From a virus (lineage: Duplodnaviria; Caudoviricetes), in the IMG/VR virus record IMGVR_UViG_3300028048_000039, positions 96,001 through 160,000 of that record: a stretch of DNA of 64,000 bases; one strand, 5' to 3'. This document shows positions 4,387 to 29,382 of this stretch, one piece after another. Under the pieces are notes generated by a model that saw nothing but the letters and a program-made list of their open reading frames with translations, was not told the origin of the DNA and made no database searches. Every line of letters begins with the position of its first letter. The stretch's first letter is position 1. The position numbers and the translations under genes were made by a program.

Positions 4387-4396
4387 ATAAATAGTT
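4387..4396 (-). promoter_or_regulatory. Putative phage late promoter motif AACTATTTAT, representative copy
   Basis: Same sense-strand motif at 7652(+), 10555(-), 10593(+), 11922(-), 22516(-), 24426(-), 24641(-), 37226(-); variants at 16657(+), 40003(+), 28163(+). Each lies shortly upstream of a start codon. Confidence 0.7.
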
Positions 4397-9840: not shown

Positions 9841-9848
9841 GAAAAAAG

Positions 9849-9877
9849 AAAGGACCTCGATTTTGAGGTCCTTTTTC
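9849..9877. terminator. Bidirectional terminator
   Basis: AAAGGACCTCG-attt-TGAGGTCCTTTTT; near-identical copy at about 18370. Confidence 0.8.
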
Positions 9878-9882
9878 ATTGT

Positions 9883-10536
9883 TTAATCTTCATCATTCGG
9901 GTCATAATCCCTGAAATAGTCATTTCCTTTCTTAGCACACTTAATTATCTTCTTAAGAAGTTTTTTGGCATCATTCCAACCTTCTTCGAAGTAATCGCCA
10001 TTAAGTATCTTAACTTTTCCACCAGCCTTGGTTAATACACGTATCCTCTCTGGTTGATAAGAACCATAGGCACTCTTGAATGGGAAGTGAATATAACCAC
10101 GTCCATCAAGTACGATTGGTGCCGTAAGCCCAAAGAAATCATCCTTGTCCTTTAATGGCATATCATCTTCTTGATACCTCTTAGCTTCTTCAAATGCTTC
10201 ATTTGCCAATGAAATGGCAGCATTAATTTTGCTAACCGGGTCAGATATTTCATTTAACACTTTCTTAACGCCTTCCATTACTATAGTACGAATATCCCTT
10301 TCAGTTATACGTACAATACTCTCATTAGCCTTACTCTTCTTCTTGCTTTTCTTTACATGATTTGGGAGACCTTTATGCTTTGTCTTTGCAAATTCCTTTG
10401 CCCCCTTTTTTGATATAGATTTAGCAGCATCCTTAATAGCCTTACTAGGGTTATCAAGCTCACCTTTCTGATAAGCGTGAACCATTCCGAAAAATCGCTG
10501 CTGTGCACGGCTTTTTGCTTTTTCATTTAGTATCAT
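9883..10536 (-). CDS. Late basic protein (KSxAQQRFFGMV...FAKTKHKGLP, DUF3008-like) whose N-terminus is supplied by the adjacent insertion
   Basis: Recognisable N-terminal motif; late motif at 10555-10564; see findings. Confidence 0.65.
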   Translation of the reverse strand: MILNEKAKSRAQQRFFGMVHAYQKGELDNPSKAIKDAAKSISKKGAKEFAKTKHKGLPNHVKKSKKKSKANESIVRITERDIRTIVMEGVKKVLNEISDPVSKINAAISLANEAFEEAKRYQEDDMPLKDKDDFFGLTAPIVLDGRGYIHFPFKSAYGSYQPERIRVLTKAGGKVKILNGDYFEEGWNDAKKLLKKIIKCAKKGNDYFRDYDPNDED

Positions 10537-10608
10537 AATGAGAAATATTTTTAAATAAATAGTTCATTTTTATTAGAAAATAAGATATTTTCAACTATTT
10601 ATAGAAAA

Positions 10609-10716
10609 GATTTTTTTGTAGAAGTAAGGCCCTACAAAAAATCAAGACATAATAATCTTACAGGGAGTATAGTCTTTTACCAGGCCTTACAATATGGTAA
10701 TTTTCTATCTCCTTGT
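10609..10716 (+). ncRNA. Structured 5' leader RNA with a predicted kissing-loop interaction
   Basis: Hairpin 1 loop GTAAGGCC (10624-10631) is the exact reverse complement of hairpin 3 loop GGCCTTAC (10683-10690). Confidence 0.6.
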
Positions 10717-10727
10717 TTTTTTATGAT

Positions 10728-11876
10728 ATGAAGAAAATTACAAAGGACGAATTTATAAAAAGGGCAAATAGTTGCCATAATAATAAATATGATTATTCTA
10801 AAGTGGTCTATATAAATAGTACAACTAAGGTTAATATTATCTGTCCGATATATGGAGAATTCCTTCAAACACCTTCTAAGCATTTAAGAGGACAAGGCTG
10901 CCCTATTTGTGGTAATAAAAAAGCAATAGCCGAGAGAAATAGAACACAAGACGAATTTTTGCGTATGGCAGAAAACATACATGGTAAAAGATATGATTAT
11001 AGCAAAACATTATACAAAAAGAATGATAAGAAGGTTTGCATAATATGTCATGAAAAAGACAAATTCGGAATTGAGCATGGTGAATTTTGGCAAGAACCAC
11101 ATACTCATCTGAATGGAAGTGGTTGCCCTAAGTGTTCTCAGAATCATAAATATACAACACAAGAGTGGGTTGAAAGGGCTAAAATTATACATGGCGATAA
11201 ATATATCTATGATAATGTAGAATATGAGTCGTGGAATAAAAAGGTTTGTATTATATGCCCAGAACACGGGGAATTTTATCAAACACCACATCACCATCTA
11301 AGTGGTCACGGATGCCCTTTATGCGCAAGTCAGGTCGTTAGTGAAAAGAAAAAACTATCACAAGATGAATTTATTTCCAGAGCAAAAACCATTCATAATA
11401 ATAAATATGATTATAGTAAAGTAGAATATGTTGATTGCAAAACCAAAATTAATATTATCTGTCCGATACATGGAGAATTTAGACAATATCCATCATACCA
11501 TCTAAGCGGCAATGGTTGTCCCTTTTGTAACGAAAGTCATATAGAAAGAGAAGTTAAGAATACTTTAGAAAAATACAAAATTGAATTTAATCGGAAAAAA
11601 CATTTTCCTTGGCTCAAAAATAAGCAAGAAATGGAATTAGATTTTTATCTTCCCACTGTAAAGGTTGCTATTGAAGTACAAGGCAGGCAGCATTATGAGC
11701 CAGTTAGTTTTGGTAGCAAAAATAATGATAAAGTTCAGCAAAGATTTAACGAACAAATAGAGCGTGATAAGAAGAAAAAGAAATTATGTGAAGAACATGG
11801 TATTAAAATGATTTATATCGATTTTAACGAAAAAAATGACATTGAAAAAATCATATTAAACTCAATTCTAAAATAA
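10728..11876 (+). CDS. Putative homing endonuclease: four DUF723-like zinc-finger repeats plus a C-terminal PD-(D/E)xK/Vsr-like nuclease
   Basis: Repeats of H.xKYDYSKV.Y...IICPxHGEF.Q.P..HL.G.GCP.C; ELDFYLP...AIEVQGRQHY...DKKKKKLC. Confidence 0.85.
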   Translation: MKKITKDEFIKRANSCHNNKYDYSKVVYINSTTKVNIICPIYGEFLQTPSKHLRGQGCPICGNKKAIAERNRTQDEFLRMAENIHGKRYDYSKTLYKKNDKKVCIICHEKDKFGIEHGEFWQEPHTHLNGSGCPKCSQNHKYTTQEWVERAKIIHGDKYIYDNVEYESWNKKVCIICPEHGEFYQTPHHHLSGHGCPLCASQVVSEKKKLSQDEFISRAKTIHNNKYDYSKVEYVDCKTKINIICPIHGEFRQYPSYHLSGNGCPFCNESHIEREVKNTLEKYKIEFNRKKHFPWLKNKQEMELDFYLPTVKVAIEVQGRQHYEPVSFGSKNNDKVQQRFNEQIERDKKKKKLCEEHGIKMIYIDFNEKNDIEKIILNSILK

Positions 11877-11903
11877 TGCCAGTGCTTTACTCTTTGCTGG
11901 CAT
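11868..11903 (-). pseudogene. Orphaned original 5' end (MPAKSKA) of the 9883-10536 gene
   Basis: ATG CCA GCA AAG AGT AAA GCA C behind its own AACTATTTAT (11922-11931); runs into TAG after 11 codons. Confidence 0.65.
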
Positions 11904-11985
11904 ATTAAAACTATTTTCTTTATAAATAGTTTGCTTTTTCCGTTTATTTTATGTATATTTAACAAAAGTTAAAATAGATTTTAAG

Positions 11986-27806: not shown

Positions 27807-29382
27807 ATGAAAGTAAAACTTAAGAAACTTAATGAGAATGCACAACTCCCGGTTAAAATGAAGGAGGGTGACTTGTGTTATGATGTCTATGCAACATCAG
27901 AAGAAGAGGTAAGTCCAGGTGTATGGCAGTATGGGCTTGGTTTCTCTTATGAGATTGTAAGGGATGAAAATCAGATACCACACGGAAATCCACCTGCTTT
28001 TGGTGGTTTTATGTGGCATAATCACTTTAATAACCCAATTTCAATTTCTATTGACCTGCGTCCAAGAAGCGGAATTTATAAGACAGGAATGGTACTAGCG
28101 AATGGACCGGGAACCTTTAACGAAAAAAAATATTTATTCTAATGTTTCTTTTTCATTTATCATACTATTTATATTAAAAACAATTTAATATGATAGTAGA
28201 GTATAAATGTAAAAATTGCGGTAAAACTTTTTTAGACCAGCACTATGCTGATAGAATTTTTTGCTCACCGAGTTGTTTAAACGAATATAGAAAGAAACAC
28301 CCAGAAGCAAGAGCAAAAAGAGGCGAAGGTGACAGTAAAGTAAAAGTAAAATGCGCTGAATGTGGTAAAGAGGAATTAGTGGCACCAAGTAGAGCAAAAC
28401 ATTATGTTTGCTGTTCAATAAAATGCTCAGCCGAATATAAGAAAAAACAACGGAGACAAAAAGTTGAAAAGATTTGTCCTATTTGTGGAAAACATTTTTT
28501 CGTAAAAAAATCACAGGAGAAACGAAGAGTATGTTGTTCAAATGTATGTGCCGGAAAATATAGAACATTACATTTTTGTGGCGAAAATAATAGTAATTAT
28601 CGTGCATATACAATTGAGAATGGTGTTAAGTCAAAAACTTATAAGAGATATAAAGAGCCATATAGAAAAATAGCAAGAGATGTTTTAGGTGTGAAAGCAG
28701 TTCCAAAAGGTTATGATGTGCATCATAAAGATGCTAACGAAAATAATCATTCTGTTGAAAACCTTGTTGTGTTACCAAGAAATGCCCATATGCTAATACA
28801 TCGGTGGTTTGGAAATATTTTGATAAACGCCTTACATACTGGAAAAATAAGCAGAGAACTTTTCTTTTCAATGTGTAATGATGAACAAAAAAAGTTTTAT
28901 AAAGAAATAATAGATTTAAATATTACTCATCAAGAGGTTGTAAAACAGGGTGAATTGCTGGAAAAACCTGAAGAGGCCAATCAGCAGCCAAGCATATATA
29001 GAAATATATTTGAAGGTTCAACGACTAATGGACGAGTCTTAACAGATAATGCTGAAGATAGTAATTCCGACACGAGTGCCCTGCCTACTATAAAAAATAG
29101 TAGTGATGATATAGTCTAAACTGCGCATATAACTTAAAATGAAAGTGCAGAATTATGGGATAAAGAACCCATAAGATAATAAATTGAGATGAATTTTATC
29201 GTGGTGAAGCAAAGGCCACTTTCTATCACATAATGAAGAAGTTACCAAGATATAAGGTTGGTGATAGGGTTGGTCAGATTAAACTCGGTATCGCTATCCC
29301 TATGGAATTTGAGTGGGTAGATGAAATCAACGAAGAAACTGAGAGGGGAAAAGACGGATTTAGTAGTACAGGAAACAAGTAA
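27807..29382 (+). CDS. dut: Trimeric dUTPase, spliced (exon 1 27807-28117, exon 2 29187-29382; 168 aa)
   Basis: Exon 1 has CYDV, RPRSG, NGPGT; exon 2 has DEFYRGE, VGDRVGQ, TERGKDGFSSTG; the join gives GT-L(TT/A)-DEFYRGE. Confidence 0.9.
28118..29186 (+). mobile_element. Group I intron
   Basis: 5' exon ends in U; IGS GAGGTT (28934-28939) pairs AACCTT with a U.G; P GAATTGCTGGAA, Q AATCAGCAGCCAAG, R GTTCAACGACTAA, S GATGATATAGTCTA; P3 CAGGGT/GCCCTG; terminal omega-G at 29186. Confidence 0.9.
28190..29119 (+). CDS. Intron-encoded HNH homing endonuclease with zinc-finger repeats
   Basis: Three CxxCGK...CS..C units; YDVHHKDANENNHSVENLVVL...H...H. Confidence 0.85.
   Translation: MIVEYKCKNCGKTFLDQHYADRIFCSPSCLNEYRKKHPEARAKRGEGDSKVKVKCAECGKEELVAPSRAKHYVCCSIKCSAEYKKKQRRQKVEKICPICGKHFFVKKSQEKRRVCCSNVCAGKYRTLHFCGENNSNYRAYTIENGVKSKTYKRYKEPYRKIARDVLGVKAVPKGYDVHHKDANENNHSVENLVVLPRNAHMLIHRWFGNILINALHTGKISRELFFSMCNDEQKKFYKEIIDLNITHQEVVKQGELLEKPEEANQQPSIYRNIFEGSTTNGRVLTDNAEDSNSDTSALPTIKNSSDDIV

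Follow-up and report, generated by a model that had tools for sequence, protein, structure and literature searches.

A conserved two-hairpin RNA leader with complementary loops in front of a mobile homing-endonuclease gene of rumen phages

Background

Homing endonucleases have to be expressed at a level that is high enough for them to spread, yet not so high as to harm the phage. To our knowledge, almost nothing is known about how free-standing homing endonucleases are controlled outside the T4 family. The mobE gene of phage T4 carries a conserved intrinsic terminator in its 5' part, which is found only in phages that carry mobE and limits its transcripts (Wilson and Edgell 2009, PMC2790892). 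In I-TevI, I-TevII, I-TevIII, Aeh1 mobE and segB, RNA helices hide the initiation regions (reviewed in PMC3014915); these hairpins sequester the Shine-Dalgarno sequence, usually contain a late promoter so that late transcripts escape, and lead to delayed or low expression. A third system, the guanidine-IV (mepA) riboswitch, which is one of several riboswitch expression platforms that depend on loop-loop contacts, forms a kissing loop in the presence of its ligand, and this contact disfavours a terminator (PMC11611296).

The leader described here precedes a homing-endonuclease gene in a phage genome and consists of two hairpins, P1 and P3, with exactly complementary loops. As in T4 mobE, a hairpin followed by poly(U) lies near the 5' end of a free-standing homing-endonuclease gene, and the element is found only where the endonuclease gene is present, an arrangement that is read as keeping the nuclease low. 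The T4 mobE terminator differs in that it is located 27 nt into the coding region and consists of a 9-bp stem and a 4-nt loop, and in that mobE lacks a promoter of its own, whereas the leader places a 57-nt hairpin, predicted to be a terminator, upstream of the AUG, has a dedicated promoter motif and offers a loop that can pair with an upstream hairpin. With the other T4-family hairpins (PMC3014915) it shares a structured RNA just upstream of a phage homing-endonuclease gene and predicted pairing with the start region; unlike them, it has no Shine-Dalgarno sequence, its sole promoter motif is upstream of the whole fold and the helix at the AUG is weak. Like the guanidine-IV riboswitch, the leader has two 5' hairpins with pairable loops that appear to be coupled to an intrinsic terminator. 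It matches that riboswitch neither in sequence nor by model, however, its first loop can pair with the very tip of the terminator-like hairpin, and neither a ligand pocket nor a conserved loop motif is evident.

Results

The window, i.e. the whole stretch of 64,000 nucleotides that was analysed, corresponds to bases 96001-160000 of an IMG/VR phage record of 344,580 bp with a G+C content of 37%, and the sequencing runs that contain its DNA are gut metagenomes of cattle, sheep and goat. The endonuclease gene (10728-11876, plus strand) encodes 382 amino acids, with four zinc-ribbon repeats and a C-terminal nuclease part, and was assigned to the Pfam families DUF4379/DUF723 and to PHROG families named HNH or homing endonuclease. 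Its presence or absence is polymorphic between alleles. A sheep-gut contig (L107, protein P0124) carries an allele lacking the endonuclease, in which position 10502 directly abuts 11882 in the alignment, and this junction confirms an insertion of 1379 bp (10503-11881, plus strand). The insertion point follows codon 7 of a DUF3008 gene, with GTGC at both junctions; in L107, the DUF3008 gene begins with MPAKSKAQQRFF and lies 82 nt from a Thg1-like gene. The original 5' end of the gene (MPAKSKA..., 11882-11903, minus strand), with which the intact P0124 and most DUF3008 proteins begin, was orphaned by the insertion, and the cassette supplies a replacement, MILNEKAKSRA. It also brings a minus-strand promoter motif that is divergent to a plus-strand motif with the leader and the endonuclease gene. 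The cassette combines a predicted promoter and a putative control RNA of its own with a new 5' end for the gene that it interrupts.

A block corresponding to 10335-11905 is shared, at 92-94% conservation, with two other phage backgrounds (L096-L098 and L099) in which the flanks are unrelated, and the endonuclease is 93% identical to copies in Logan contigs of other runs. In the protein database we found no endonuclease at 55%-93% identity, hence intermediate copies are not on record. The three cassette lineages, each in a different phage background, all carry the leader (3/3), which is absent from L107, the allele that lacks 10503-11881. As the cassette interrupts DUF3008 genes of two otherwise unrelated backgrounds, the conserved coding region MPAKSKAQQRFFGMV probably serves as the homing site. 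Marine DUF3008 genes with an N-terminus of the 'EKAKSRAQQRFF' type had neither an endonuclease nor a leader adjoining.

Two further observations concern the cassette. In a strain 99% identical to the window (L100), the endonuclease gene is internally deleted between repeated zinc-ribbon modules (L100:4001-4531 compared with 10728-11876 of the window), such that 176 amino acids remain and the leader is intact; we take this deletion as a sign of endonuclease decay after fixation. At 11876-11903, the last bases of the cassette and the orphaned old start codon together form a hairpin (ATGCCAG/CTGGCAT), followed on the minus strand by UAUUUU, and this hairpin could keep transcription that starts at the orphaned promoter (11922-11931) from entering the endonuclease gene in antisense orientation.

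The sequence-only reading of this stretch had placed three hairpins in front of the endonuclease gene, and the two outer ones were recovered as strong stems with the sequence that it described. P1 (G10609-C10643, plus strand) has the loop AAGUAAGGCC and a stem of 12-13 bp, in which seven T face six A and one U is bulged, and has a computed folding energy of -7.5 kcal/mol on its own. P3 (A10660-U10716, plus strand) is a terminator-like hairpin of 57 nt, in which a lower stem of 8+4 bp with a bulged U (ACAGGGAG-u-AUAG / CUAU-CUCCUUGU) continues through a 4x4 internal loop into an apical stem of 6 bp (UUACCA/UGGUAA) that carries the loop GGCCUUACAAUA. Owing to G-U pairs, it is more stable on the plus strand (-18.2 kcal/mol) than on the minus strand (-12.3 kcal/mol). 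The intermediate helix P2 (AAGA/TCTT) did not hold up; it has a folding energy of 0.0 kcal/mol on its own and is broken by a G-to-A change in L096. We therefore treat 10644-10659 (plus strand) as a linker.

The same reading had pointed to an exact match between the two loops over 8 nt, and this too is borne out. The 8-mer of loop 1, GUAAGGCC (GTAAGGCC; 10624-10631, plus strand), is the exact complement of the 8-mer of loop 3, GGCCUUAC (GGCCTTAC; 10683-10690, plus strand). Both are GC-rich within an AT-rich spacer and predicted to be single-stranded, the former in the ensemble, and a duplex between them has a computed energy of -13.9 kcal/mol. The loop-1 8-mer is invariant in the three lineages.

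Two features of the leader had been missed. Directly 3' of P3 lies a tract of seven U (10716-10722, plus strand), extended to nine in lineage L099, and P3 together with this tract has the anatomy of an intrinsic terminator on the sense strand. P3 is atypical for a terminator in being long and AU-rich and in having a 12-nt loop, and a simple terminator scanner skipped it because its loop exceeds 8 nt. The second feature is an element of the linker, CAUAAUAA (10648-10655), which is paired with UUAUGAUAUG (10721-10730, including the AUG) in both RNAalifold and RNAfold predictions, and the endonuclease AUG is consequently predicted to be mostly paired (P(unpaired) of 0.24-0.39 in the ensemble). 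The AUG pairs with the CAU of 10648-50 in a weak helix made of AU pairs only; there is no Shine-Dalgarno sequence and P3 ends 11 nt upstream. The 141-nt stretch as a whole folds at -33.5 kcal/mol (z = -3.6), with none of 200 shuffles as stable, and the opposite strand has z = -2.2.

The start of a 10-codon upstream ORF (10694-10726) falls within the loop and stem of P3, on the 3' side, and the ORF ends 1 nt short of the endonuclease AUG. It was considered as a conserved coupling device and rejected, since the two additional T residues of L099 fuse it in frame with the endonuclease, giving a product of 394 amino acids. No tandem direct repeats of the type III toxin-antitoxin (ToxIN-like) kind were found in 10500-10760, and ARAGORN returned no tRNA or tmRNA genes in 10400-10900.

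The predicted promoter of the endonuclease transcript is the motif CTATTTAT at 10595-10602 (plus strand), and a mirror copy at 10555-10564 (minus strand) would serve the rebuilt DUF3008 gene. The motif occurs in 78 copies in the phage genome, where 30 are expected, and mostly before ORFs. In the other units, the ATG is usually located 13-25 nt downstream, a spacing which implies that the transcripts are normally very short-leadered or nearly leaderless and start within about a dozen bases of the motif. The endonuclease AUG lies 125 nt downstream, preceded by a leader of 119 nt, and the leader thus amounts to an insert of about 105 nt relative to the other units. P1 begins 7 nt after the motif and would therefore be at the predicted 5' end of the transcript or within a few nucleotides of it. 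Among the few long leaders behind this motif, that of the endonuclease is the only one strongly folded. The families of the genes behind the motif gave no informative matches on the 'late' timing that it had been credited with, and both the timing and the promoter activity are predictions. Within the window, the motif in the form (A)CTATTTAT is seen, for example, at 4394(-), 7654(+), 10562(-), 10595(+), 11929(-), 28165(+), 37233(-) and 40005(+), usually with an A-rich stretch immediately after it.

A bidirectional terminator at 9847-9876 stops plus-strand transcription upstream, and since upstream transcription is already stopped there, P3 serves no upstream gene. The genes of this phage mostly have no Shine-Dalgarno motif upstream. 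An intron-borne HNH gene at 28190 has the same promoter motif at a spacing of 17 nt and no leader, and the upstream regions of three paralogous endonuclease genes contain no similar leader either. Metatranscriptome contigs (X4, X19 and X20) covered the neighbouring DUF3008 and Thg1 genes at 99% or more; no high-identity contig extended over the leader or the endonuclease gene, and contigs of this kind can show neither absence nor RNA ends.

Loop-to-loop complementarity of at least 8 nt was found in three cases among about 5800 neighbouring hairpin pairs of the 344-kb genome, the two besides the leader being parts of larger hairpins, and in none of 174 shuffled upstream regions. The loop match is therefore unusual, but the bare statistic does not outweigh the fact that the whole window was searched. 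It gains weight from the strength of the stems, from loops that are rich in GC amid an AT-rich spacer and from the position in a leader.

Conservation was assessed across the three cassette lineages. Between them, the endonuclease gene shows 14-22% divergence at fourfold sites, and 60-nt windows around the leader contain 2-6 variable columns, whereas no change was found in 10612-10640 or in 10647-10714. The variation within the leader is confined to the base of P1 and the linker (10611 and 10641-10646) and to the longer U-tract. For the invariant parts, whose boundaries were set post hoc, the local rate predicts about 7 changes (Poisson P about 1e-3) and the fourfold-site rate about 27. All 57 nt of P3 are without substitution; in P1, the bulged U is lost, one U-A pair is changed to U-G and the second-to-last pair is broken once. 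The pattern indicates that the top of P1, both loops and P3 are under purifying selection. No compensatory change was observed among the 35 pairs tested in three distinct sequences, which include the 8 loop pairs and are invariant apart from one wobble. As every pair is invariant, the conservation fits an RNA structure and a DNA site alike, and as the divergence of the cassette is mosaic, recent recombination may explain part of it. The G-U pairing in P3 and the U-A to U-G change in P1 fit a plus-strand RNA only.

The leader was then compared with known RNAs and with related loci. Rfam gave no match at gathering scores and, at E <= 10, returned noise alone (mir-7, snoZ122, MIR5298 and PreQ1 on the wrong strand) with no ribozyme model, in agreement with the earlier statement that no known RNA family was recognised. 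A covariance model (R1) built from the three lineages matched only the leader itself in the 344-kb genome, with no second copy, and gave no credible match in 92 loci with homologs of the endonuclease, DUF3008 or Thg1 genes or in 5 pattern hits. Searches of the endonuclease, DUF3008 and Thg1 homolog loci with blastn and nhmmer produced only AT-rich noise, nothing similar was found near 80 endonuclease homologs of at most 50% identity or near the DUF3008 and Thg1 homologs, and none of 50,697 deposited phages matched the leader in blastn. A pattern of the two loops had 5 matches in IMG/VR, all in unrelated coding sequence; the 5' arm of P3 had none in IMG/VR and the JGI metagenomes, and a pattern of the top of P1 had none in the metagenomes, with the proviso that records closest to the phage genome were possibly missing from these pattern scans. 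Upstream of 58 to about 300 homolog starts, two-hairpin arrangements whose loops are complementary, screened both with a T-run and without, were as frequent as in random windows or shuffles. A full-text search of the literature returned no paper on such leaders for homing endonucleases. On this evidence, the leader appears to be a single conserved example.

Discussion

The leader structure is real, conserved and specific to the cassette, with which it travels. Most likely, it belongs to a known general kind of regulatory leader and adds an unusual predicted tertiary feature; for this instance, novelty lies in the putative kissing contact. In the reading that we prefer, and to which we would give an even chance, the leader acts in cis to throttle the endonuclease, as an attenuator or occluder, and the loop pairing serves as its lock or tuner. 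Transcription would start within about 10 nt of CTATTTAT, placing P1 at the very 5' end of the RNA. P3 and the U-tract would then act as an intrinsic terminator (attenuator) located 5-11 nt before the start codon, so that the gene is carried by read-through transcripts only. In the read-through RNA, the base of P3 and the CAUAAUAA/UUAUGAUAUG pairing may cover the initiation region, a case of translational occlusion. The 8-bp pairing between the loops of P1 and P3 may lock or tune this fold, either by fixing the off state or by setting the efficiency of termination. The atypical form of P3 for a terminator, and the lack of such a leader at the paralogous endonuclease genes and the intron-borne HNH gene, count against this reading. 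The sequence-only reading had offered three interpretations of the leader, of which a cis-regulator limiting a toxic nuclease best fits the promoter motif, the hairpins, the U-tract, the partly paired start codon and the described precedents (PMC3014915, PMC2790892). Its two other suggestions, a ribozyme and an RNA partner of the nuclease, found no support from ribozyme models or repeats, and the RNA was not found apart from the cassette.

Several other explanations deserve to be weighed against attenuation. The U-tract could, instead of terminating transcription, be an unstructured landing site for ribosomes in a host that does not use Shine-Dalgarno sequences. In its full form, this explanation confines control to translation, with the base of P3 and the anti-AUG pairing hiding or exposing the initiation region and the U-tract serving as a landing pad for the ribosome or S1. 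The AUG region pairs with 10648-10655 in both consensus and single-sequence folds, there is precedent in T4 (PMC3014915), and, as Shine-Dalgarno motifs are mostly missing in this genome, structure near the AUG should matter. Nevertheless, we consider control by translation only to be unlikely, given that the anti-AUG helix is weak and consists of AU pairs only, that the strong P3 stops 11 nt before the AUG, and that the T4 promoters lie inside the hairpin while the motif here is upstream of the whole structure. The combination of a promoter, a structured RNA and a hairpin with a U-tract is also the standard anatomy of an sRNA gene, and an RNA of about 110 nt, whose two 8-mers are predicted to be single-stranded and free to pair, might act in trans as an antisense regulator, a protein sponge or a partner of the nuclease, with the endonuclease expressed by read-through. 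A separate sRNA gene seems improbable to us, however, since we found no target for it, the genome contains GTAAGGCC and GGCCTTAC as often as expected by chance, there are no antitoxin-like tandem repeats and the element is found only attached to the endonuclease gene.

We attach an equally low probability to a leader that merely stabilises the mRNA, in which P1 would shield the 5' end against decay, P3 would be incidental and the loops would match by coincidence. The position of P1 at the predicted 5' end agrees with such a role, 8-nt loop matches arise a few times per genome by chance and the loop pairing is without covariation; yet larger hairpins account for the other 8-nt matches in the genome, and the invariance of the 57 nt of P3 and of both GC-rich loops, as well as the U-tract, would be left unexplained. 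Conservation that shows no covariation fits a DNA-level element equally well, in which the inverted 8-mers or the hairpins would be, for example, a recombination site of the cassette or a protein site such as an operator for autorepression by the endonuclease, and I-TevI, as cited in the review PMC3014915, represses its own promoter. Against this quite improbable explanation, the leader and the endonuclease-less target site are similar only in a 9-nt A-run, the centre-to-centre spacing of 59 bp is odd for a dimeric operator, and the G-U pairs markedly favour the fold of the plus-strand RNA over that of the other strand. A small self-cleaving ribozyme or other catalytic RNA is hardly credible. 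The leader resembles such RNAs only in its overall appearance, in which several helices meet at a junction and loops would make a tertiary contact; it matches no Rfam ribozyme model even at E <= 10 and has no conserved unpaired core, the junction (10641-10646) being its sole variable part.

The cassette has moved between at least three rumen phage backgrounds, which makes it a compact natural expression-control module. If the loop contact sets the efficiency of the terminator, the leader would be a protein-free and ligand-free relative of riboswitch expression platforms, and could serve as a portable part for tuning toxic genes. More tentatively, as a possibility that we consider doubtful, the leader may be one instance of a widespread and undescribed class of phage control RNAs, in which a kissing contact between a 5' hairpin and the tip of an intrinsic terminator sets, or with a phage or host factor switches, the amount of transcription into a homing-endonuclease gene or another dangerous gene; its design would have arisen or been dispersed without sequence homology, and would have reached rumen jumbo phages as well.

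Other features of the genome

The tetranucleotide GATC is absent from the whole genome (about 1160 copies expected) and CGCG occurs once (about 400 expected), a depletion that is a strong avoidance of specific restriction sites; GCGC and AGCT are at about half of expectation. The idea of avoidance or methylation of GGCC was rejected, since GGCC occurs at its expected frequency. In the window, an Rfam group I intron (53.7 bits) was identified at 28907-29128, and the HNH gene that precedes and overlaps it (28190-29119) has the CTATTTAT motif in front. Outside the window, at about 12434(-), 86133(+) and 172919(+) of G000:C1, there are three sigma-70-like units (CTTGAC, about 17 nt, TATATTTATAG), each followed by GC-rich foldable sequence with no ORF, and these may be small RNA or tRNA-type genes.
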